Assembly (NCBI GenBank): GCA_045837725.1
Contig: JBEWZL010000200.1
Span: 1 to 64,000, forward strand
Length of the DNA stretch: 64,000 nt
Direction of reading: 5' to 3'
Source of the DNA: Vermamoeba vermiformis
Lineage: Eukaryota
Below, one piece after another: positions 1 through 57,404 of the stretch (within the stretch, counting starts at the first letter, position 1; the number at the start of each line of letters is the position of its first letter). The notes beneath the pieces are model-generated. The model made no database searches, was not told where the DNA came from, and saw only the letters and a program-made list of their open reading frames with translations. The position numbers and the translations under genes are program-made.

Positions 1-228
1 TCCCTCTTCGGCCGGCCAATGCTTTTAGATAAAAATTATACAAAAATTCAGGACCTTTGATTTCCGTTAATCGCCAGAAGAGACTGTAGTACAAAAAATG
101 GTACAATTTTGTTGGGCGATGTCCATTGACAGTGCGCCACACCCCTGCGTGGATCCAGATCAGCCCCGGATCCGATCCACTTCCCCAAGCTTATTTCTTT
201 GTTTTATCATTAAAAAGGGATAAATCGC

Positions 229-600
229 AATACAAGACTTGGTTGAGCAAGCCTAAGTATTCATAGGGAGGAATTTGGCCGGGCCCTAACCCATCCAAGT
301 GTCGAAGTCACGTTGAGGTGACTGACACGGCCAAAACCATGCGATTCATCAAGATAAAGGTCGCAGGCATCAAGATGACACCCCTCCATAAAGGAGACCG
401 TACAACAAAAGAGTGTCCGCTACGGCAAGTGACAAGTCACTTTCTAGCCCATCCAACTCAGTGCCAGTGAGAGTGCTGTTCCGAACCAGTGGTGTCACCG
501 AAGCAACACGACCTCCAGACCATACTCTGACCCACATCGTCGAGAATCAACGCGTAACTTTCTCGTTGTAGCGGCGCTAAGGTTTCACCCTTAGACGCCG
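229..600 (-). ncRNA. Putative structured non-coding RNA, family unassigned
   Basis: No ORF; at least seven adjacent stem-loops, including a C(UUCG)G tetraloop at 492-509 and G-U wobbles that only pair on the minus strand; T5 run downstream (212-216). Confidence 0.5.
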
Positions 601-803
601 GATTGTTTAACATTGTTTATTGATAATTAATAGTGTCCAATAGTTTTAACAATCCTAAATATAATACACAGTGTTAGATAGGCGATGAAATTCACCTTGG
701 AACTGTAAAAACTTGAATTTTGCTGGCACGCATTCGCCGCAACTATGGTACGTAAATTATTACTTACCGTTGCTGTTTCCGTATTGAATTAGTCATTTAA
801 AAT

Positions 804-1746: not shown

Positions 1747-2611
1747 CTGCTATGTTGTTTTGAGGTTTGAGTGTTATTGTTGTACGAATTTTAAATAAGA
1801 AATGCCTCGATTTCTTTCGCTATTTTATGCTCCGTCTGTTCCGTTCTTCAAGAATAATCTACGTGGATCACAATCGCCATTCCAATTCTGGCGAACGAAT
1901 CCAGTTACATCGCGTGATGTCTTCTAGGTCCAATATTCAATACTACTACCATATATGTACAAATGGTTGCACGAGAGCAACTCGTTTGATTAGCTCGTCA
2001 AACACAACTGAAGTGAAATTAATCTTATTCTTTTGCGCATCTGACTTGTTCGTAGCAAGTCATGTCAGAAACACATATTATGTTACTATTATGCTCGTTG
2101 ATAAGGTAAATTATGAACAACATCCTACGTAGCTTTTTAGTTGAACGATCTGGTTCATCCAGATTATTCGCATTTTTTAACGCGTGTAAATTACTTGAAA
2201 ATGCTGTTAAACTATGATTATAATTTTGGCGCGTGTAGAATAAATATTTAGCTTGTTGCAAATTTTTATAGAAATTAAAATTGCATCCAAAAGATTCTGA
2301 AACAAATACTAGCCAAAATGAATATATTATACGGTTTTAATTATTTTGGATACGATATTTGGAACGTAATTAAGTAAACAACTCACTGACCCGAAAGATC
2401 TGGAGATTTGTCGTTGGAAATTGTATGATCTTCGCCGTGTCCTCTGATGATCTTGCTTTGGTAAGTGATACTATCCTTATAACTATAATTATACTAACGG
2501 TTACAATAAGCGCTATTTTAACGTGCCTCCCAAAAAAGGGAGGAAAATTGTACCAACAACCGGCGCCGAACAATTTTTTCTAGCTAGTAGCTTGATAGAG
2601 AACAATTAAAG

Positions 2612-4914
2612 ATGAGAGTAGTTGTATTAGCAATTATTCTCGCTTTAGCTATGGTCGAGGCCAGGGTTACGAACGTTAGAAGCGAGATCCCGCCTAAATT
2701 CGAGTTACTCGATCGTGCACCGGCAGATCAAGTTCTTGAATTTAGATTAGCGTTACAACAGAATAATATGGATATTTTAGAAGCAAGTACCACCGATAAA
2801 GCCTTAATCTCCTTTAGCCTTAGTCAGATCCATTTCTGAAATTTTATTTTTAGGCTACTTTGCTCGATGTCTCTGATCCCGACTCAAAGAACTACGGTAA
2901 GTATACGTATTGATTATTATAAACGAAGTATTGGTTGCGAATAGCTGCGCGAAAAAGCAACTTACTCTTCCATATTTTCGGCACTAGGTGCTTATTTGTT
3001 TATTAGGCAAATGGTGGACAACTGAACAAATTCTCGATTTAATTGCACCATCAATCGACGAGATCAAGCCAGTTGTTGCATGGTTAAAGTCTCATGGAGT
3101 GGAAGAGATCGACGTCTCTGGTCGCGATTTCATTAAGGCAAAGGCTCCTATTGGAATCATCGAACAATTATTCCAAACCGAAATGCATAATTTCCAATCA
3201 AAAGAAACAGGTTTGTTTTCGGCAAACTGGATACGTACCATGAAAATTTTATTAAATTCTTTCCAAATTAGGCAAAATCGTCCCACGTGCGTTCGGAGAA
3301 GTTCACGTGCCTGATCATCTTCACGTAATTCAGTTTGTAATGGGTATCACGGAACTCGTTCCAAATTCGTATGTTAAGAGCAATGGTGTTTCGGATCTGA
3401 AGCGCCATGTTGAGCAAGATCCGCTGGGGTACATTTATCCCGGCATCATTCGAAAGATGTACCAAATCCCTACAGCCTTCAACGTCAATCCGCAAAGCTC
3501 ATTTGCCGTTGTTGAATATCAAAACGATACGTCCTACAACCAAGCGGATCTGACTATTTTCAACCAACAAATGAACGAGAACGCACGAGTGCAGAAGATC
3601 GTTGGACCTTTTTACCCTGATGATCCTGATGTTGAATCCACTCTTGACGTCCAGGTAATATTAACTTCTTCAACACTTCAACAGATTTGATCTGTTGGAG
3701 GATCAGAAATTAACGCAGAATTTTTCGTCGGTAACTAATGATTTTTTTAAATAGTACGGTGCTGCGATCGCTTTGAACACTTCGTTCTGGTTCTGGACAG
3801 TTGACCAATGGCTGTACGAGTTCGCTACTGATTTGTTCAACGCCGAGTCGCAGCCACTCGTCGTGTCAATGTCTTGGGGCTGGCCTGAAATTATGCAATG
3901 CGGTATGACTGCTTGCGTTAATTCATCGATGGGATCGTCATTGCAATACGTCAATAGAGTGAACCACGAGTACATTAAGATCGGTTTAAAGGGCATCACT
4001 TTGCTCGCTGCTTCAGGTGATTTTGGTGCCGGTGGCGATGGTGATATTGGCTGCGCTAATATTTTGACAACAATTTTCCCTGGTGCTTCTCCCTGGGTCA
4101 CTTCTGTCGGTGGAACTATGTTAATACCACCTTCGCAAGCCGTTCATGAACGACGCCAATCCAAGCAGCAACAACCGCCTATCTGCAGTCAGTTAGTATC
4201 ACGTGATATTTAATTTATCAATTTTATTTCTTATGTTCAAACTTTAGAAAACAATGTGCAACTACGACGGTCGAAGGTGTTTCTTCTTTTCCTGGTAAGA
4301 CTTTTATCCTTAATATTTTGTTCTTAGTATTAATTGTTACTATCATTACAGTTGCACGTATTACATCCGGCGGAGGATTTTCAAATGTGAGTGATTTGCC
4401 CGGCTGGCAAAAAGACTATGTCAACGAATACTTGAAGATCGCGACGAATCTTCCGTACGGCCAATTCAAGCCTACTAAACGAGGCTTCCCTGACGTAGCT
4501 GCAAATGCGCACAATTATTTGATCAACATCGCCGGCCAAGGGTTTATGTCTGTTGACGGGTACGTTTTGCGATGAAGTTTGACAGATCTCAATTTTTATT
4601 AATTTTATTATGGAACCAACAGAACTTCTGCGGCGACTCCCGTGTTCGGAGCTATCATCTCGCTGCTCAATAGCTACTTGCTCAACAACGGCAAGAGCTC
4701 GATTGGCTTTGCCAACCCCTTGTTGTACAAGATGTACGCTGCTGACAAGACGACCTTCACTGACATCACCACTGGCAATAATTATTGCGCTGAAGCGTGT
4801 TGTGGCAATACTGGATATGTTGCCACGAAAGGCTGGGATGCAGTGACTGGTCTCGGTACTCCTATCTTCCCCAAAATGCAGGAGTACCTCCAAAAGAACG
4901 TTGTAAACAAATAA
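2612..4914 (+). CDS. S53 family peptidase (tripeptidyl-peptidase I/sedolisin-like), copy 1, multi-exon
   Basis: Signal peptide, prodomain, ESTLDVQ (Glu/Asp), LAASGD, PWVTSVGGT, SGGGFS, RGFPDVAA, DG|TSA catalytic Ser across an intron, GWDAVTGLGTP. Confidence 0.92.
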
Positions 4915-5013
4915 TAGAAAAATATATATTTGGTAATAAAATAAAAGTAGGTCAGGAAATTCTGGTTGTTTTGTTGTCTCGAGCAGATCGCCACAAACCT
5001 ACGCGCAAATTCA

Positions 5014-7329
5014 ATGGCACAATTAAACAGCGCTATATTTATTGTTTTAGTGGCGCTGCTATGCGTCGAGGCGAAGCTAATGTTACAGAGGAATCACGTT
5101 CCTGATAACTTTAGCAAACTTTCTTTGGCCCAACCAGATCAGACTCACGAATTTAGAATTGCATTAAAACAACGCAATCTAAATATTTTGGAGGTAATTA
5201 ATTATATTCCAATTATAATATAATTCATAGCCGATCCTACCAAGATTTTTCGATTTTACGTGACCTAAAAAATTAATATAAACCTATCAATAACGTTATA
5301 ATAATTATAGGAAAAATTATTGGAGTTATCTGATCCTGATTCGCCCAAGTACGGTATGAACGGAAATATCTAAAGAGGATTCAGATCGAGAAGTTTGATA
5401 CCTTACCTATTATTCAGGCAAATGGCTAACCAATGACCAAATTCTCGATTTGATCGCCCCGACTGAAGAAGAGATTAAACCTGTTGTTTCATGGCTCAAA
5501 GAACACGGTGCAGATCGGATTGACGTTTCAGGACGAGACTATATCAAAGTTTCTGCTTCGATTGGAGTCATTGAAAAATTATTCCAAACGAGAATGCATC
5601 ATTTCAAGTCTGAAGAAACTGGTAAGCGAAAAAAACAACCTTTGTCGATCGGGATCTTGCTGACCACCCACATCAATTAGGCAAGATTATAACACGTGCT
5701 TTCGGTGAAATTCACGTTCCAGACCACCTTCACGTAATTGATATGGTGCTTGGTCTCACTGAACTCGTTCCTAAGTCTGAGATCGAGCCCGTGAAACACA
5801 AGCGAGACGTCACTCAAGATCCAATGGGCTACATTTATCCTGGCATTTTAAGACTCAATTACTATATTCCTAGTGCCTATCAGGTCCATCCTAAGAGCTC
5901 TATTAGCATTGTCAACTTCCAGGATCTGTCGGGTTTCAGTCAATCTGACCTCCCAGTTTTCAACTACAATTTCAACGAGAGCACGCATGTGGATAAGATT
6001 GTTGGTCGATTTAGCGGTAATAGCCCGGACTTCCAATCGAATTTACAAGCTCAAGTAAGTATCAAATAATTACATATTGCCAGCATGACGTGCGAAGTAG
6101 CGGATCCAAAATTTTTCACGATAATCGTTTTTTTCGCGGCATTTTATTTCTTTATTGACACAATGTTCAATATAGTACGGCAGTGCCCTTGCATTAAACA
6201 CTACTTTCTGGTTCTGGACGGTCGATAAGTGGTTGTACGAGTTCGCCACGGATCTGTTCAATTCTGATCCGTACCCTCTCGTCGTTGTCATGGGCTGGGG
6301 CTGGCCTGAAGACTTGCAATGTCAAATTGTCGGTTGCGGTGGCGTCTCTGGCTCGTACGCTTATGTCGAACGACTCAACGCAGAATTCATGAAACTGGGT
6401 GTCAAGGGCATTACGCTCTTAGCCTCTGCAGGCGACAAAGGAGCACCGGGAGATAAAGACAGACACTGCAAAAAAGGAATTATGTCGACCATGTTCCCTG
6501 CCTCGTCTCCTTGGGTCACATCCGTTGGCTCGACTATGCTCGGTGTTCAACAAAACAGACTCTTCAAATCGAAGCGTCAAGCCCCAGTTCCTTATGAATG
6601 CACACAGTACGTCTAATAATGATTATAATATATTATTTTACTAATGCTCGCAAATAGAGTCCAATGCGCAAGTTCTAGCTACGAAATTGCATGCGCATAT
6701 CCTAGTAAGTCGCAAAATAAATACAATATTAATGGTATTGATATTAATATTATTCTTGGAAATTAGCTGCATTTATGACTACTGGTGGAGGATTTTCGCA
6801 AATTAGTCCCAGACCTGCGTATCAACACGATGCCGTGAAACAATACTTCAACAATACTTTCACGCTATTGCCTCCCGCCAATTTGTTCAATGCCTCTAAT
6901 AGAGCATACCCTGATATCAGTGCCACCGGTCATAATTACTTGGTCCAAGTTGGAATGAACGGATTCGTGCAGGTGGATAGGTACGTGGTCTGAAAGTGTG
7001 CGATCCACGTCAATTTTTCTAACTAGATCTGCCAATTTAGCTCGGCTGCTTCAGCAACAGTCGTTGGCAGTGTGTTATCATTATGGAACAGCTTCTTATT
7101 TAACAACAATAAGAACTCGCTCGGATTCGTGAATCCGCTCCTCTACAAAATTTTCAAAGAGAATCCTAATGCCTACACGGACATTACTATAGGCACTAAT
7201 TACTGCACAAAGAGTTGCTGCGGTACCATTGGTTATAATGCAGTTCCTGGCTACGATGTGATTTCAGGTCTAGGCACGCCTTTGTTCTCGCCATCCATTC
7301 CTACACTCAAGAAAATTCTCAAGATCTGA
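5014..7329 (+). CDS. S53 family homolog, copy 2, predicted catalytically inactive
   Basis: Same exon structure as copy 1 with open frames, but QSNLQAQ replaces ESTLDVQ and DSSAA replaces DGTSA. Confidence 0.88.
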
Positions 7330-7462: not shown

Positions 7463-8253
7463 TTATACTTGGACGCTATAAACATCCTTAAGAAAATTCT
7501 TTAAGTGAAAATCAGTAATTCGTTTCACCATTTCTCGATAATGCAATTGAAGCCCGTGATTGTCGCCTTTGAAAATTTCCAGTTCTTTTGGATCACGTGC
7601 AAGTGCGTAAAGTTGTTTTGAACAGCGCGGTGTCAAACACGTGTCAGCATCGCCGTGCATAAATAATGAAGCACAACGAGGTCCTAGTATTGAAACTTCT
7701 TCCGTGCCTGCTGTTTGAGATGCGACCGTTGAAATTGCCACGACTGAATTGCGACGAGAAGCGGCTTTAATAACAACGGCACCGCCAAAAGACCATCCAG
7801 CAAGACATATTTTTTCAACTCCGTATTGACTTTGTAGCGTGTCAATGGCTGTCAAAGTGTCAAGTAGACATTCGGCCAGATGTGCTGGTTTTCGGTAATC
7901 AATTCTAAGAACAGTAACGCCTAGTTGTTGTAAGTCAACTCCGATGTCTTCCCATGCACCACATGGGCCTGCGGTACCTCCACCTGCTCCTGACACAAGA
8001 ACGGATCCAAATTTTGATCCTTCTGATAAGTGCAATAATCCTGGATAATAACGAAATATTAAAATTATAGCCCGAAAACACTCAATATAATCAATATATG
8101 ATACTATGAGAGTTAATACTTACCAGAAACGGTACCTTTCAAGATCTGTCCTTTCGATCCGGATTCAAAAACTTTCAAATTGAAGTTCGTGGGCTTAACT
8201 CTAGTGGTGCTTCTTGACATTGTAGAAAGTGCTCTTTTGATGCTCTTGATCAT
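7463..8253 (-). CDS. Alpha/beta hydrolase
   Basis: GWSFG nucleophile elbow, HGDAD and GDNH motifs; one intron (about 8043-8106); basic Ser/Thr-rich N-terminus MIKSIKRALSTMSRS; alternative start at 8220. Confidence 0.85.
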
Positions 8254-32670: not shown

Positions 32671-34412
32671 ATGCGACTCTACCTTACGGTCACTCTTTGC
32701 TTGTTTGTCGGTGGACTTTACAGAACCGCTACTGCTGCCTCGTACGAACCCATCTGGATTTCTCCGACCAACGTTGCTAAAACTGGCGTTGGTGAGTAAA
32801 TTCCACAAAAAATAGTAAAGGATATAATACGCACCAATTCAATTTAAGTGGAGTATGTTTTAATTTTAAGACTTACTGTAGTACAAAGAATTGTTGCCAA
32901 ATCTAACTAACTCCAATAATTTAGCCGATATTTTGGAGAGCTACACTGCCGAGAAAGGCGTTTGGGCTACTATCGATGTTGGAGCTGGTTCTCGTGGAGT
33001 ATCCCCTTTAGCAGCAATGGATTCCAAAGGCATTCTTTGGATCATGTTTGGATCTTATCTTATCAACGATGATACAAAGAATTTGTTCAACGTATGGAAC
33101 TACAATCCTAAAACTGATCAGTATCGCTATGTTTGGGGAAGCATTGAAACTTCCAGAACGAACCCACGTGGGTGACCCTGGCGACCTTCGCGTACCTGCT
33201 GAAACCAATCACCCTGGTGCTATCCGATATGCTGGCGTCACTATTGATAGAAATGATAATATTTGGTTCACTTCTTTCAAAGATGGAGGCGAGTTGTGGA
33301 TGTTCAACACCACATCCATGATGTTCGTCAGAATGCACGGATTCGATCTAACAACTGTTTTCCCAAGTATTGGTGCTAACCCTGGCAAACCTGGAGAGGA
33401 TGTGTGGCCTGGATTTACGGAAGGAGATTGCCTGGTCACTGACTCTAACAACGACATCTGGAAGTTGTCCGGTTCCAACTTCAATGGTGTAACGAGCAGT
33501 GTTTGGCACTTTAACACAACATTGTTGCTATGGACGTTCATTACTGGCAGCATTGAAGAACTGCCAGCAGGCAATTATAACGCTACATTTTTTGGTGGTG
33601 TACGAACTCCTGGTTGTTTCATTGATGAAAATGATCGTGTCTGGCTCTACGGTGGTTGGGGAACCAGTGCTGATGGCCATGAAGACTATGGCAGCATTTG
33701 GACATTTGACACGCGTGTCAAGCGGGAGTGGGAGTTAGAGTTCGGTCCGGAGAGAGTTTCTGCCCCTCCTAAATCTGTGTCCGCTGATTATCATCCTGAC
33801 AATCAGCCTGGCAGTGGTGAAACCATGTTGTTTGTTGATCGCATGGACGGCACTGCGATGTTGGTTGCTACTGTTGGATTCAACGATGCTGGAACCTGGG
33901 GATCGTTGAATCAAGTGTGGCTGTACCACAAGACTCTGAAGCAGTGGAAGCTCGTGCACGGCGACACGAACACGGTGGATGCCGATGTTACTACTGCCTT
34001 TGTGAACTACCGTCAGCCTGGTTCTAATTATACTGGCGCAACCTATCCTGCTAGAATTAACGGGATAAACACTAACGGCGATGCCTACATTGTGGGTGGT
34101 GGTTACTTTCAAGTAGAGCCAAATTTTAACACCATCTGGTTCATTCCCAACGACCAATGCGCTTCTGCCAGTGCCAACAAATGTTCAGTGAACGCGCAGT
34201 GCATTGAAGAGATGTTCGGATACTCGTGTGTGTGCAATGATGGCTTCACTGGCGATGGATTCACTTGCAATGCCATTTCCGGGGGGGTTGCCCCTGTTGA
34301 TGGTCCTGTGGCTAATAACGTGCCTATTGCCGCCACTCCAAAGGCAAAAACTAGCAGCGCTTCAATTGTCGGTCCTGCAGTTGCTTTGATGGCACTCGCA
34401 CTCGCCTTTTAA
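32671..34412 (+). CDS. Secreted kelch-like beta-propeller plus EGF domain surface protein, with one frameshift
   Basis: Signal peptide, Trp-rich propeller repeats (VWLYGG, LWMF), CSVNAQC...YSCVCNDGFTGDGFTC, hydrophobic GPI-like end; frame change at about 33140-33170. Confidence 0.75.
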
Positions 34413-46500: not shown

Positions 46501-47563
46501 ATGAAATTATTAGCTGACTTACATTACGGAGCTATCAATGACAAGTGTTAGAGTTTATGACACTTCATCTAACGTGTTTTGTCTTCGCAGTTGCTGTGAC
46601 TGGCGATGGAGTCAATGACGCACCAGCGTTGAAAGAAGCGCAAGCTGGTGTAGCGATGGGCAGTGGCAGTGACGTGGCAATTCAAGCGGCGGATATCGTG
46701 CTCTTGGACTCGAACTTTAGGTCACTACTTGTTGGCATCAAGAACGGTCGATTGGTCTTCGAAAATTTACGCAAAGTCATTATCTACTTGCTGCCTGCTG
46801 GCAGTTGGTCCGAGCTACTGCCTATTTTGGTCAACGTTTTTCTCGGAATTCCGTTGCCGCTCAGTACCTTTTTGATGATTTACATTTGTGTTATCACGGA
46901 CATCTTGCCCTCGCTGTCATTGATGTACGAAAAGGCCGAATCAAATCTCATGAAAAATCCTCCCAGAAACCCAAAGAAAGACAAAATGGTCAATTCGCGA
47001 TTGTTCTTGCACGCCTACTTGTTCTTGGGCATGATTGAATCATTTGGCGCATTCTTCATGTACTTCTACTACATGGACTCCATTCATGGAATCAAGGCCG
47101 GCGATCTGTTTTTAGCTTTCGACAAATGGACTGATGGCTATTTAGGTACGAAAACTTTCGCGTGTCAAAAGTGTCAAAATGTCATTTTTCCTTTTTAGGT
47201 CTTACTCAGCAACAACTAAACGAAGCACTTGCTGGTGCTCAAACGGCGTATTTTATAGGTCTTACGTTCATTCAGTTTGGCAACTTGATGTCAACGAGAA
47301 CACGTGTTCTGTCGTTCTTTCAACACGATCCGTTTTCAGCCAAATCGAGAAACTTGTGGCTATTTGGCGGCATTACTGGTTCATTGGCTTTCATTCTTAT
47401 TCTGATCGAGATTCCGATATTCCAAGAAGTTTTCTCGGTTCGAAACATCGAGTACCAGTTTTGGCTGATGCCGCTTGCTTTTGCTGTATTGTTGTTCTGC
47501 TGCGATGAGATTCGCAAGTTGATTATCCGCCGCCATCCTTCAGTTCTATCGTGTTTTAAATAA
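43548..47563 (+). CDS. P-type ATPase, type IIC (Na+/K+ or H+/K+ ATPase alpha-like)
   Basis: [54 protein letters not shown]. Confidence 0.93.
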
Positions 47564-47614: not shown

Positions 47615-48964
47615 TCATATTACACGTCTAATCGATTGGTCTTTGAAGATTGATCGTGCAATTGGACCAAAGTCAAGTGTCACTCCTGGATATTTGACAT
47701 GTGACACGATCAACACCCAAATGTCACGTGGTAGTACTGGCATTGATTTGTCTGATGAATTATTGCAATGACTTGATCGTGCAATATTGTACAACAGCAC
47801 TATCATCGATCGAACTCGTTCGTTCTGAAGTTTTCTGTTACGAAGCGTTATCTCTTTGATCTGCCCTTTATCAGTGTTTCGATATAAATCACAGTCTACT
47901 ATTGATTCGTTCTCTCGTAGTATTGACAGGTCATTGAGCGGAGACTTCAAAATGAGATCCAACTTTCGCAAAGACTGTGCCTTTTTTAATCCATTTTTAA
48001 AGTCGATATTATCCACTATATTATCGGTATTGATATATAACCATAAATCTTCTAATTTCGGAGAATTGGCGAGTATTTTTCCGATCAAAGAGTACAGATC
48101 CGGCATGCAGAGGTAATCATAAAGTTCTATGTGTAAAATCCTCACTCTACTGTCCGCCAAAGCATCAAATATGTCATATCTAGAGTTCTTGTCCCAAAAT
48201 AATCCAAATTTCAGCTTCGTTAATACTTTTGATCTTTGGATCAGCCGAACTAGATGTGGCATTGCCGGTGCAGTGACCATTACATGTGCCAATTCCAGTG
48301 ATACTAATTTGTCATTATGCTTAATAAAGTACTCGCAGAATTCTTTGAATCCTTCAGCTGGAACATCGTCGCCAAACAGAGTTAGCTGTGCGAATGAGAA
48401 CTGATTGAAATTCGTTCCACTTGAAAGTATTGCTGTGATTTCGGTGAATAATTTAGTCCAATTTTCAATGCAAGAAATATCCAATTTGAAATGCTTCGTT
48501 GGGCAGTGAAGACCGTTCAGTTTTGTACTGAGCGGTGCACGTGCACTGTCATCTTCGGTGACTTCCAAAGTCACAAGATCTATATTGCAGCGATTATTAT
48601 TGTTATTGTACTCCTTAATTGCGTCAAACAGGAGTTGGATGTGCTCGCGGGTTGTCTTCGCATCTAAAACCAAAGTGATCTCACTGATTTGATAAGAGAT
48701 GTTTGAGTGCTTAATATCATCAATAAAGTATTTAATATCTTCTGCAAGCTGGGTTACAGCGATGATGACTTTTTTTACGCTTGGGTAATTAAAAATTCTG
48801 GTCTCTTTCTTCGATATTATTATCTGAATGCATAATAATTAATATACATAATAATACATCCATAGGTATATTTTTGGGTCGATAACAAAATACCAGTAAC
48901 GAGAAAATTAAAAGATAATTCGAAATCTTTGACCAATCTCAATTTAAATGGTTACCTGTGACAT
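47615..48964 (-). CDS. RNI-like LRR protein with C-terminal F-box-like motif, copy 1
   Basis: Micro-exon MSQ plus one large exon; LxxLxL repeats; LPRDIWVLIVSHV near the C-terminus. Confidence 0.8.
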
Positions 48965-49230
48965 GATTATATTGACATAAATTAATTTTGAGCAATTTTG
49001 TAGTGCTGAGCCAATGACAAAAAAAACAAAATGAAATCCGGATGTTGTTTTGGATCAAAAAACAGGCAGGTTATGTTGGCTCAAAACCAAAACTGAACTA
49101 GCTAAAAAATATTCGTCTGTTCGAACGCAACAAATAACAAAGAAAATCGTGAGAAGTGGCCGTTTTCTTGATCCCAAATGACACTTTAGAAAGTCTTCAC
49201 TGAACACCTATTAAATCTCGCTCATTTTAT

Positions 49231-50604
49231 TTATATTACACGTCTAATCGATTGGTCTTTGAAGATTGATCGTGCAATTGGACCAAAGTCAAGTGTCACT
49301 CCTGGATATTTGACATGTGACACGATCGATGTCCAAATGTCACGTGGTAGTACTGGCATTGACTCGTTCGGTGAATTATTGCAATGACTTGATCGTGCAA
49401 TATTGTACAACAGCACTATCATCGATCGAACTCGCTCGTTCTGCAGTTTTCTATTACGAAGTGTTATCTCTTTGATCTGCCTTTTATCAGTGTTCCGATA
49501 TAAATCACAGTCTACTATTGATTCGTTCTCTCGTAGCATTGACAGGTCATTGAGCGGAGACTTCAAAATGAGTTCAAACTTTCGCAAAGATTGTGCCATT
49601 TTTAATCCATTTTTAAAGTAGATATTATCCACTATCCTATCAGTATTCATATTTAACAATAAATCTTCCAATATCGGAGAATTGGCAAGTATTTTTCCGA
49701 TCGAAGAGTACAAATCTGGCATGCAGCGGTAGTCGTCGTAAAGTTCCATGTGTAAAATCCTCACACTACTATCCGCCAAAGCATTAAATGTATCATATCT
49801 GGGGTCCTTGTTACAATAAAATCCAAATTTCAGCTTCGTTAATGCTTTTGATCTTTGGATCAGCCGAACTAGATGTGGCATTGCCGGCACGGTGACCAGT
49901 ATATGCGCCAATTCCAGTGATATTAATTTGTCATTATGCTCGACAAAATATTCGCAGAATTCTTTGAATCCTTCCGCTTCAAATGGAATTTCGTCACCAA
50001 AAAGAGATATCGCAGCGAATGAGAACTGATTGAAATTCGTTCCACTTGCAAGTGTTGCTGTGATTTCAGTGAATAAATCAGTCCAATTTTCAACGCTAGG
50101 AACATCCAATTTGAAATACTTCGTTGGGCAGTGAAGACCGTTCAGTTTTGTATTGAGTGGAGTTGAACTGTCATCTTCGGTGACTTCCACAGTCACAAGA
50201 TCGATATTGCAGTGATTATTATTGTTATTGTACTCCTTAATTGCATCAAACAGGAGTTGGATGTGCTCGCGGGTTGTCTTCGCTTCCAAATCAAAATTGA
50301 TCTCGTTGATTTGATAATTCATGTTCGGTTGCTTAATATCATCAATAAAGTATTTAACGTCTTCTGCAAGCTGGGTTAGAGCGATGATGACTCTTTTAAC
50401 ATTCGGGTAATCCAAAATTCTGGTCTCTTTGTTTGATATTGTTATCTGAATGCATAATAATTAATATACATAATAATACATCTATAGGTATTTTTTTGGG
50501 TCGATAATAAAATCATACCATTTAATAAAAAGAGAAAATTAAAAGATAATTCGAAATCTTTGACCAAGCTCAATTAAAATAATTACCTCATTGATCTGCG
50601 ACAT
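49231..50604 (-). CDS. RNI-like LRR protein, copy 2
   Basis: Micro-exon MSQINE plus one large exon; similar to copy 1 throughout, including intron and upstream DNA. Confidence 0.8.
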
Positions 50605-50867
50605 GACTATATTGATATAAACTAATTTTGAGGCAATCTTGTGGTGCTGAGCCAATGACCAAAAAAACAAAAAATGAAATCCGGATCTTGTCCACAAGTG
50701 TCAGTTACGTTAATAAACCTAGATTAGCCCCAAAAAAGATTGCTCTCCAAAATCACTCAATGCCAAATAACACCGATTCTTGTGCGATGTTTCATCTTGA
50801 TCCACCAAAATGACATTTTAGTAAGTCTTCGCCGAAGACTGTAATGTTTAAATCTCGCTCATTTTAT

Positions 50868-52277
50868 TTATATTACACGTCTAATCGATTGGTCTTTGAA
50901 GATTGATCGTGCAATTGGACCAAAGTCAAGTGTCACTCCTGGATATTTGACATGTGACACGATCAACGTCCAAATGTCACGTGGTAGTACTGGCATTGAT
51001 TGGCCTGACTCGTTCGATGAATTATTGCAATGACTTGATCGTGCAATATTGTACAACAGCACTATCATCGATCGAACTCGTTCGTTCTGAAGTTTTCTGT
51101 TACGAAGTGTTATTTCGTTAATTTTGCTGGTCGGATTTGTCTTATGAACATTAATTGCGCATTTGAATTTTATTAACGATTCATTTTCTTCTAAGAAATA
51201 TGCGGCTTGCTCTTCGCTCAAGGATAATTCGGGTAGTGAAAGCGATTTTAACGAGTGTGCTGTTTTTAACGCTTCTTTAAATAGCTTCTTGTGATTAGGA
51301 TCTTCGATTAATTCTCTATCAAATGACGTTACGATCAATTCTTCTAATTTTTGAGAATTTTTAATGAGGCCAATGCACATCTCGAGGCTTGCGACTGTTA
51401 AGTTCTTTATGTTGCTATTCAGTATAGCGTCATACATGCTACTATCTCCCTTGTATAGGAAAGATGGAAATTCATATTTGAGATCTGTTAATGCTCGCGA
51501 ATTTTGTATGAGTTGACTGATCTGTTGATAATTCTTGAGGCCAATATCGAAGTTGAAGAACTCTAATGATAACAATTGCTCTCTATTTTCACTAAAGTAT
51601 TCGTAGAATTGGGTAAATCCCTTGTCGAGAGTTAACGGGCAATCGTACATGAAATTTGCATCACGGAAGGCGATCTGATTGAAATTTGTTCCGCTTCGAA
51701 GGACTGACACTAGGTCTTGAAACATACTGTCAATATTATCATCGATCGAGGCACTAAATTTGAAATATTCTGTTGGTCTTTGAAGATTTTTGAGTTTTTC
51801 AAGAGATCCGATATTTTCTTCTTCATCCTCAGCAATATTAAGGCGTTCTATCATAATAGTCAAATTACGAATCTTGTGGGTACCGGTATTATTGTATTGC
51901 TCAATCGTTGAAAAGAGTAGTTGAAAGTGCTCGTATTTTGTTCGCGAATCCGCACAAAATATCACTTCGTCTATGACTAATGGCGGCTTAAGTACTTTTG
52001 GAAGTTCAGCTATATCATTTGCATTATCTTTTAACTTTATATGGAACTGTTTGACCTCTTTGTTCGGAGATGTAATGGCGCGAATGAATATCTGCGGAAA
52101 TAAATCAGAAAATTATAAATGACGAGGCTAAAATTATTGCATCAAATTGGCACGCTATAAACCAATTTTTCAACGTTATTGTATTTATGCAACGCAAGAT
52201 GCGTTTTCGGCGAGAGCTAAACGGCATTAGTATGCTCATTATTTAGTCACCAACAGAAAATTACTCACGTTATCCAT
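50868..52277 (-). CDS. RNI-like LRR protein, copy 3 (divergent body, near-identical C-terminus)
   Basis: Micro-exon MDN plus one large exon; shares SGTNFNQ and the terminal ~75 aa with copies 1 and 2. Confidence 0.8.
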
Positions 52278-55223: not shown

Positions 55224-57404
55224 ATGGAAGTTACTATTAGTCGATTTAAATTAGCAGGAACGCTATTTTATTTCAATTGTCGCTGGTTCGACACGTATTT
55301 TGAGGTCGATCTTTCAGATGGCAAATACGTCTGGCAAGGCAACGGTAAGATCTGGCTGTATTTTGAAATAAACTATTTTTTAATATTTTTAATAGCGACG
55401 AGAGAATATATTGAAGAAGAACTCAAGCCTAAAGGCATGGATTTTTCAGAATATATTAATTTAGTCAAAGAAGCGTTTGCCGTTCAAGATCTGACCAAGA
55501 AAAAATTCTCGTATGGTATTCAAAAAGGCGATACGAGTAATCAACTTAAGGTACGATTAAAATCGCCAGATCCAGCGTTCTGAACGAAATGTTTTTTTCC
55601 TAGCTGATCTGGAGTATTCATTTGGGCGAAGACGATGAAGAAGTTAAATTTGCGGTAATATCTTGATCATAATAATAATTCTGTTAAAAGTTGCTCGCTC
55701 TTATACCGTATAACAGATGCAAGGTCTGCTTATTGTTGAACGTATCGCTGAATCTCGACAAGTGATTCAAAAATATTTTGATTGGCTTATTGACAACAAG
55801 GTCAAGTTAGAGGTACGACTAATAGAATAAGAGATAATGGATTTCTGAATCGAGATCTAACTTTTGATCCAAGGAGGAGAACAGAGAATTGAAGAGAGTT
55901 AACAAATCGGTTTCTAATCAACGAGATCTGGCTATTAAACAATTTGATCAATTGATTATCGAGAAACAATGTCTTGAAACTGAACTCTACGGCAAGGTAA
56001 GAGATCTTGCTCTATTTAAATACCGCCGCTAACTTCTATGATAACAGTTCGTAGAATTGCTTAACGAGAAAAAAAAGAAGATCAGAGAACTGAAAGATGA
56101 ACGTAAGTTTGAAAACAGATCCGTTACAAAAAAACTCCTCTAATTCTTGTCGTTCAGTGAAAGCGAGACCTTTTCAACGCCAACACTCGCAATCCATTGA
56201 ATTACAAGGCAGTGACGACGAGAGCGAGAGCGAAGATGGATTGAATAGTACAATGGTACGTACAATCGATTTCAATGCTTCGCGTACTGACGGATCCAGC
56301 TTCAAACAGGAGACTCCCAAAGCGCATTAGAACAACGACAACTGGGCTCACATTCGACAGCAACGTTTAATATGAGTATTAACCACATGGCAACCCCATC
56401 GATGGATCTGCTCGCGACTGAAGAATCGGCTGTATTAGAACCTGTAATTAGACGAAGGTACGACCAAAATTAATTAATTCTAGTCACGTGACATTACCTA
56501 ATTTGGAATAATATTATGAAGGTACCGCCCGAACTTCCCAAAACAGAGCACTAACGTCACGGCGATGAAACAAACGACTGAGTTTGGATCTCCTATTCAA
56601 TCGCCGATTAAAATGTTATCGCCACTTTCTACTACTAAAAAACGAAAACGATCTGAAATGGAATCTCCGACTAATAATGCGACATCCAAGAAGAGTTCTA
56701 AAAATAGTCCGGATGCGAAACCAAGTGGCAAGGCAACGTCGTCTTCAAAGACTTCTACGAGCAAGACAGCAGTTGAAAATACGAGCAAAAATTCCAAGAA
56801 TACTAAGAACAATAATGATTCGCCGCCAGCCATTACAAAGACTAAAAATAGGTGCAAAAACGTCTCACCACCGAATAACCATAAGAAGACATCTCCACCG
56901 ACAAAGAGCACCAAGAATAATACCAATACGCCCAGTAAGACTAATAACAATCATAACAATGACGTTAATAGTCCGACGGCGAAGAAGATCGGTCAAAATT
57001 TCCTTAAGAAAAAAACAGCCGCATCCAACACCATTCAACGACCAGACCCCATTAGAATTGCAATTAACAACGAAAATATCGATACTAGCAATATTTCAAT
57101 CAAATCTCCGTCGTTATCGCACAACACTAACACATCCAATAACTCGCACATGACCAACGTAGATCTGACAAACAATCCAATTACGAGCCAATTAAGCAGC
57201 AGTTACAGCGATTTGCCGTTGAAATCTCCTGAAAAGAAGACAGTTCAAAAACTATTCAAACAGCCTGCACCGACTTCAAAATCATCGGTCAAAGATGAGC
57301 CAGCGAAAAAATCTAAAAATGGACCTGGCAGTAATTATAATCAACCGTTGAATTTAACTCTTGAAGATGACGCTAGCGAATTGATTAATATGATGAGCTA
57401 TTAA
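55224..57404 (+). CDS. XRCC4: DNA repair protein XRCC4 homolog
   Basis: Head domain FEVDLSDGKYVWQG...MDFSEYINLVKEAF; coiled coil EKQCLETELYGK|FVELLNEKKKKIREL; long disordered tail. Confidence 0.85.

Follow-up and report, generated by a model that had tools for sequence, protein, structure and literature searches.

A candidate orphan structured RNA of about 385 nt on the minus strand of an amoebozoan genomic window

The minus strand of the window (the whole 64-kb stretch of DNA that was analysed) carries, between position 219 and about position 604, a structured element of about 385 nt. The element folds better than chance, is biased towards one strand, has sharp boundaries and gives neither a family signal nor a coding signal. 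It belongs to no described RNA family and is a credible candidate for an orphan structured non-coding RNA. The explanation that we place first, although tentatively, is that an amoebozoan has here a gene of its own for a small non-coding RNA with a defined structure. Which polymerase makes this RNA, where it starts and stops, and what it binds and does are all inferred.

The stretch 212-605 had been described in a first-pass annotation as hairpin-dense and as a candidate structured RNA of the minus strand, and a comparison with dinucleotide shuffles had been suggested there. The outcome of this comparison supports the description. The folding energy of the minus strand is -144.1 kcal/mol, against a mean of -122.1 kcal/mol (sd 5.7) for the shuffles, giving a z value of -3.88, and none of the 100 shuffles folds as well. 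The plus strand of the same stretch reaches -114.1 kcal/mol with a z value of -2.04, and two of its 100 shuffles are as good. As a background, 27 other 394-nt pieces of the window were folded on both strands with 15 shuffles each. The resulting 54 control strand-windows have a mean z value of -0.16, a standard deviation of 1.0 and a minimum of -2.25. The element thus lies outside all of the controls, showing that its folding beats chance.

The signal is unevenly distributed over the element. The 3' domain (219-350), folded alone on the minus strand, has a minimum free energy of -51.4, a z value of -5.77 (0 of 200 shuffles as good) and an ensemble frequency of the minimum free energy structure of 0.23; on the plus strand its z value is -3.56, again with 0 of 200 shuffles as good. 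The central domain (357-515) alone gives a z value of -2.51 on the minus strand and -1.44 on the plus strand, equalled by 3 and 16 of 200 shuffles, respectively. The piece 425-520 by itself folds no better than its shuffles (z +1.22), and the 5' piece with two hairpins (541-600) has z values of -2.55 on the minus strand and -3.79 on the plus strand, so that here the plus strand is favoured. Both flanks are shuffle-like, with z values of -0.96 / -1.44 for 88-200 and -0.77 / -0.48 for 606-740, the latter being without structure. The structured unit therefore extends from 219 to about 604.

Base-pair probabilities were computed over 219-604 of the minus strand. The RNA would begin with a 5' terminal hairpin (572-600) having the stem CGGCG-U-CUAAGG / CCUUAG-CGCCG and the loop GUGAAA, with pair probabilities of 0.98-0.99. 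It is followed by a linker (516-571) that is predicted to form either a CGAGAA/UUCUCG hairpin (541-565) or an alternative local fold, these folds competing at probabilities of 0.57-0.79. A small CAGA/UCUG hairpin at 516-529 appears inside the linker in the pair-probability fold. The central multi-branch domain (357-515, helix probabilities 0.88-0.94) is closed by the helices GAGGUCGU/GCGACCUU (508-515/357-364, probability 0.91) and GGUGACACC/GGUGUCAUC (491-499/374-382, probability 0.90) and contains a CUUG hairpin at 427-442. The 3' domain (219-350, helix probabilities 0.88-1.00) consists of two branches, each capped by a hairpin with a CUCAAC hexaloop (306-323 and 235-254). It is closed by a helix of 10-11 bp, GAUGAAUCGC/GCGAUUUAUC (341-350/219-228, probability 0.96). 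A run of five T residues (212-216), which is a candidate RNA polymerase III (Pol III) terminator, lies 2 nt past this terminal helix, where the first-pass annotation had placed a U5 run after the last stem.

All of the stems listed in that annotation (572-600, 541-565, 492-509, 427-442, 340-365, 274-335 enclosing 306-323, and 229-261) were found in the sequence at these positions. Their standing in the global fold is less uniform. The UGCGA/UCGCA and UUCG hairpins are out-competed by the long-range helices 341-350/219-228 and 491-499/374-382, respectively, and in the model the local hairpins and the long-range helices would be alternative folds. The loop GUUGA of the 541-565 hairpin is complementary to the CUCAAC loop over 8 bp (547-554 with 309-316), making an intramolecular or intermolecular kissing contact possible.

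The choice of the minus strand rests on several strand-specific observations. The minus strand is favoured because its z values are better for the whole element, for the central domain and for the 3' domain. In the modelled high-probability helices at least 11 G-U pairs occur on the minus strand, which would be A-C mismatches on the plus strand; this bears out the earlier remark that the G-U pairs work on the minus strand only and is a second reason for preferring it. A third is that the C(UUCG)G and CUUG tetraloops are confined to the minus strand.

Two short sequences occur twice in the element, as had been noted previously. The motif UUGGAUGGGYUAG (repeat family D4) is present as UUGGAUGGGCUAG at 444-456, within the central domain, and as UUGGAUGGGUUAG at 286-298. 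The 9-mer AUCUUGAUG has its two copies, at 368-376 and 347-355, in the region between the central domain and the 3' domain. The repeated 9-mers are marginal, 23 of 500 mononucleotide shuffles also having two or more of them. A local alignment of the two halves of the element covers the 13-mer only, with a score equalled by 16 of 300 shuffles. The proposal of "repeated protein-binding modules" was built on linear repeats that reach only about p 0.05, and in that form it is not supported. The identical hexaloops are a better argument for repeated modules. The CUCAAC loop is indeed common to two stems of different sequence; chance agreement of a given pair of 6-nt loops is about 1 in 4096 by our estimate, which makes the shared hexaloop on unrelated stems a less likely coincidence than the linear repeats.

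The element does not match known RNA families. Over the whole 64 kb, none of the 4227 families of Rfam release 15 reaches its gathering threshold, in agreement with the earlier failure to place the element by eye. At E<=10, positions 1-1200 give four matches of 14.5-17.5 bits against thresholds of 36-100, which is sub-threshold noise, and positions 195-625 (431 nt, lax filters) give a single match, to SNORD56, of 15.8 bits against a threshold of 36. ARAGORN finds no tRNA or tmRNA gene in the window. The element had been said to have no open reading frame. Stop-to-stop frames of up to 67 amino acids do run across it, and the five element-crossing frames that were searched have no Pfam match at E<=1. 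The statement that the element is more GC-rich than its flanks holds on the right side (0.47-0.53 against 0.27-0.40), while the left flank (1-200) is little lower at 0.455.

A count of copies, which had also been suggested, gives one copy within the 64-kb window: BLAST finds no further copy there. The sole weak internal match is between 610-646 and 55937-55972 (78% over 37 nt, E 0.10), the latter being apparently coding. There is no similarity by blastn to the plasmid and phage collections, and exact words of the element are absent from the viral contigs and prokaryote genomes scanned. In the literature, a full-text search for such words gives nothing but feeding trials with broiler chickens. 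A scan of metagenomes with a two-motif pattern returned five contigs. BLAST of the element finds nothing in any of the five, and the two that were inspected are unrelated tandem repeats.

Several classes of RNA and of mobile sequence were considered and rejected. Box C/D RNAs have a C box (RUGAUGA) and a D box (CUGA) at a terminal stem, and H/ACA RNAs have an H box (ANANNA) and an ACA 3 nt from the 3' end. The element has UGAUGA at about 345-350 without a downstream CUGA, and no ACA near its 3' end. A box C/D or H/ACA snoRNA or scaRNA is rejected on the missing box pairs and on the sub-threshold score of the lone snoRNA covariance model match, and a cluster of such snoRNAs was rejected by eye. 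SRP RNA is characterized by an Alu domain, by a helix 8 that has conserved internal loops and is capped by a GNAR tetraloop, and by a helix 5 in which the 5' and 3' parts pair. By eye, GGUUCGGAACAGCAC has only a superficial likeness to the helix-8 apex, no SRP model matches at E<=10, and the ends of the element do not pair with each other. A cluster of miRNA-type hairpins was rejected by eye, the stems being just 6-11 bp long, as was an introner or MITE, there being neither GT..AG ends nor terminal inverted repeats. A DUSE-type promoter reading of the plus-strand motif was likewise rejected by eye.

The window is intron-rich eukaryotic DNA using the standard genetic code; alternative codes opened no long frames. 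The plus strand carries two tandem genes for sedolisins (S53) between 2591 and about 7329, with GT..AG introns of 60-120 nt. An exon of the first gene has 79 relatives with identities of at most 66% and no near-identical entry. The named relatives are dictyostelids, with one EukProt entry bearing a Physarum-like identifier, which places the host among the amoebozoans. An intron or UTR had also been suggested as the site of the RNA; between 606 and about 2500, neither strand has a recognised coding exon to which it could belong. On the left side the window ends 211 nt past the element.

A TATA-like box, TATTAATTAT, can be read directly at 623-632, about 19-28 nt upstream of the presumed start at about 600-604. 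A run of five or more T residues begins within the next 10 nt for 2.8% of minus-strand positions. Together, the box about 25 nt upstream and the T5 run 2 nt after the terminal helix would fit an externally promoted Pol III gene. The suggestion that the RNA is of the Pol III type is only partly upheld: the box and the T5 run are at the right distances, but two internal T4 runs in the RNA sense (407-410 and 333-336) are awkward. Such runs would terminate Pol III in organisms where T4 suffices.

If the element is an independent gene, its transcription is most likely driven by the external TATA-type promoter and carried out by Pol III, and the transcript would end at the T5 run. The product would be a nuclear RNA that starts with the 5' terminal hairpin and ends in oligo-U, the sort of 3' tail to which proteins of the La or LARP7 type bind. 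It could, with low confidence, act as a scaffold in which the rigid 3' domain displays the two identical CUCAAC hexaloops. These loops and the two UUGGAUGGGYUAG motifs might then offer docking sites in duplicate, to be occupied either by one protein, which might be a dimer, or by an RNA of complementary sequence; this is again a low-confidence suggestion. As a reading less bold than that of a telomerase RNA (see below), the minus-strand RNA might represent a new family of Pol III scaffolds bound by the amoebozoan La or LARP7. We know of no RNA partner of amoebozoan LARP7. LARP7 has been reported in Amoebozoa (PMC7928011).

Parts of the stretch are present in 13 small or environmental sequencing runs outside the source sample, with shares of 0.11-0.49; two of the 13 were aligned. 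Wastewater, biofilm, freshwater, groundwater, water, soil and canine samples are among their sources, as are three other organism labels, and none of the runs that contain the stretch is recorded as RNA. A 154-nt contig from a run labelled as another organism matches 219-341 with no differences. Beyond 219 it continues with 31 nt unlike the window, so that the break coincides exactly with the final base of the terminal helix, and a 30-letter piece of this loose end is absent from the window at up to 3 mismatches. There is no T run in 30 of the 31 loose letters, indicating that this copy does not share the terminator. In a further run, a contig of 151 nt agrees with 439-588 except for one difference. 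The break in the 154-nt contig fits a discrete RNA unit that stays identical while its flank differs, and the foreign copy might come from an orthologous gene, from a paralogue or from a retrocopy. Two raw-read RNA-seq runs that carry the same species label, although presence of the organism in them is not shown, contain 0 and 1 reads on positions 1-1200.

The strongest competitor of an independent gene, although itself unlikely, is that Pol II makes a longer transcript of which the structured block is only a segment, such as a lncRNA, a UTR or a host transcript from which the RNA is processed. The two internal T4 runs, the passage of the foreign contig through 219 without a T run, and the fairly GC-rich left flank (0.455) together with the end of the window 211 nt downstream are all compatible with such a transcript. 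However, the structure ends sharply on both sides, the TATA-like box and the T5 run are at canonical distances, and the region 606-2500 lacks a recognised coding exon on either strand.

Less probable is that the element is a copy of a dispersed sequence. It might be a retroposon resembling a SINE, a small RNA that was retrocopied or some other sequence with many copies, and the flank of the foreign contig would then be another insertion site. The identity of that contig up to 219 and its unrelated sequence beyond are what such an element would give. The parts found in the 13 outside runs point weakly in the same direction. An A-rich stretch after the T5 run and the 10-mer GGTTCGGAAC at about 475-484, which resembles the B-box consensus, also count on this side. 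With respect to a tRNA-derived SINE, this B-box-like 10-mer is present and, by eye, there is no good A box. A dispersed element is opposed by the single copy in 64 kb, by the lack of any tRNA-like part according to ARAGORN, and by the failure to see terminal inverted repeats or a convincing target-site duplication. Moreover, the pieces found elsewhere are 99-100% identical and not degenerate.

Slightly less probable again is a non-functional sequence that folds well by chance, for example a decayed palindromic or GC-rich remnant. It would be in keeping with the marginal repeats and with the lack of expression or covariation support. The z value outside all 54 control windows, the value of -5.77 for the 3' domain and the 100% identity over 123 nt in a copy with an unrelated flank argue against it.

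It is very improbable that the element is an RNase MRP or RNase P RNA that has diverged strongly. For this reading the 5' hairpin was taken to be P3, GAGAAAGUUACGCG (550-563) to be CR-I, the central domain to be the specificity domain and ACCUCAACGUGACUU (305-319) to be CR-V, with AAGUUACG and CGUGACUU presumably forming P4. The order of these elements fits, a GAAAGU motif is present, and 553-560 and 305-312 are complementary over 8 bp, but a match of 8 bp with G-U pairs is expected by chance about 0.15 times by our estimate. Furthermore, RNaseP_nuc and RNase_MRP are absent from the matches even at E<=10 (431 nt, lax filters), and the ends show no P1 or P2 pairing, the 3' end being paired with 341-350. 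The 3' strand of the putative P4 is locked in a perfect 11-bp hairpin (probability 0.97-1.00). Membership of the RNase MRP or nuclear RNase P family was rejected on the P4 strand in a hairpin, the lack of a P1/P2 end helix and the lack of a covariance model match. A search of the literature on amoebozoan MRP RNA found nothing relevant.

The least probable reading is that the plus strand encodes the telomerase RNA of the amoeba, which would be the first known from Amoebozoa, would be of the Pol III type and would be the missing partner of the amoebozoan LARP7 and TERT. It was considered because the 9-nt sequence CCCUAACCC at 284-292, a possible TTAGGG template, lies inside a helix-closed loop. 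On the plus strand, CCCTAACCC at 284-292, contained in the complement of the second D4 motif copy, amounts to 1.5 TTAGGG repeats. A perfect 8-bp helix (274-281/328-335) closes the loop; its 5' strand stops 2 nt short of the template and would serve as the template boundary. Counted over both strands, the 64 kb contain only three such 9-mers including the present one, or about 0.02 per element. In the plus sense there is no internal T4 run, the first being at 644, and the 3' domain still folds better than all of its 200 shuffles. The accessible part of a 2025 review names no amoebozoan telomerase RNA (PMC12133305), and the reported occurrence of LARP7 in Amoebozoa counts on the same side, as do TTAGG-type repeats at the ends of Acanthamoeba scaffolds, described in the accessible part of PMC9528979.

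Against this stand the strand-specific signals, namely the z values, the G-U pairs, the UUCG and CUUG loops and the placement of the T5 run, all of which favour the minus strand. On the plus strand no pseudoknot involving a U-rich strand can be seen, TTAGGG is an assumed telomere repeat for this organism, and CUAGCCC, the sequence of the second copy of the motif, is no template. The minus strand of the element contains no template of the CCCUAA or CCUAA type. Since the strand-specific structural evidence points to the minus strand, the telomerase reading is left with only a very slight chance.

Amoebozoa are poorly represented in libraries of RNA families. An RNA of about 385 nt that has a single locus and folds into three well-defined domains would be the founding member of a new family, and through it promoters of the Pol III or snRNA type could be approached in a free-living amoeba. 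If the RNA were a true telomerase RNA or a LARP7 partner, a real gap would be filled; if it is merely a lineage-specific scaffold, the addition would be modest.

Comparison with ciliate and plant-type telomerase RNAs shows one similarity, which is the geometry of template and boundary formed by the plus-strand CCCUAACCC loop and the helix 2 nt upstream of it. The differences are that the template would be on the strand disfavoured by structure and that no pseudoknot was identified. The Class I RNAs of dictyostelids are, like the element, lineage-restricted non-coding RNAs of Amoebozoa. They are about 60 nt long, contain a single short terminal stem as well as a motif of 11 nt, have a DUSE about 60 nt upstream and are reported to be restricted to Dictyostelia, and many of their genes have a T run downstream that suggests Pol III (PMC7919456). 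In contrast, the element is about 385 nt long, has three domains and lacks a CCC run at about -60. Membership of Class I is excluded by the size and the three-domain fold.

The element resembles 7SK, the metazoan regulator of P-TEFb, in being a modular hairpin scaffold of similar size with repeated short motifs; both have a 5' hairpin, and in both a U run comes after the 3' hairpin. The hallmark of 7SK is a 5' hairpin with paired GAUC motifs that bind HEXIM. No GAUC was seen by eye in 219-604, and neither the 7SK nor the Arthropod_7SK model of Rfam matches; on these grounds, and with an amoebozoan host, 7SK RNA was rejected. HEXIM is reported to have its origin in the metazoans and the unicellular lineages nearest to them, other groups having no more than a patchy occurrence of HEXIM-like sequences (10.1101/2023.02.19.529146). 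This distribution makes a 7SK-like role unlikely for the element.

The closest parallel in gene layout is with the type-3 Pol III genes, which include U6, 7SK, RNase MRP/H1 and the plant and ciliate telomerase RNAs. The layout of these genes and the features of their families are well established. The element differs from them in its two internal T4 runs and in the lack of a covariance model match to these families. It has in common with them the TATA-like box about 25 nt upstream, the hairpin within a few nucleotides of the presumed 5' end, and the terminal helix followed by a T run, and it falls into the same size class of 300-450 nt as the 7SK, MRP and P RNAs.

The minus-strand candidate structured RNA is partly matched by a 154-nt contig from another sequencing run (X12), which is identical to positions 219-341 and then continues for 31 nt beyond 219 in sequence unlike the window. 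This unrelated flank has the 10-nt word TGTTGCTTCG in common with the UUCG hairpin in the central domain of the element (~499-508). The sharing may be due to chance (~1% by our estimate), or may alternatively hint at a related neighbouring element.

Just past the T5 run (212-216, minus strand), a candidate Pol III terminator, there is a palindromic GC-rich block (140-175, both strands) having two GGATCC sites (GTGGATCGGATCCGGGGCTGATCTGGATCCAC). The region 88-200 folds no better than its shuffled counterparts (z -0.96 and -1.44).

On the plus strand, where a telomerase RNA has been considered as a low-probability alternative, the 9-mer CCCTAACCC at 284-292 corresponds to 1.5 TTAGGG repeats if read as a template. 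It is situated in a loop closed by an 8-bp helix (274-281/328-335), and is one of only three 9-mers of this type in the 64 kb.

Farther along the window are an open frame that encodes an EGF_3 domain within its 454 aa (33048-34412, plus strand), an exon encoding the C-terminal domain of a P-type cation ATPase (46545-47198, plus) and three paralogous ORFs of 352, 394 and 365 aa arranged in tandem (47615-51965, minus). The paralogs have identities of 84% and 43%, and no Pfam family was found for the three.

Closer to the element, a single-exon alpha/beta (dienelactone-type) hydrolase gene (7463-8119, minus) was possibly acquired horizontally, because almost all of its nearest Atlas clusters are bacterial. 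The two tandem sedolisin/tripeptidyl-peptidase (S53) genes at 2591-7329 (plus), which are interrupted by short GT..AG introns, have their closest named relatives among dictyostelid proteins, one of which is called physaropepsin.
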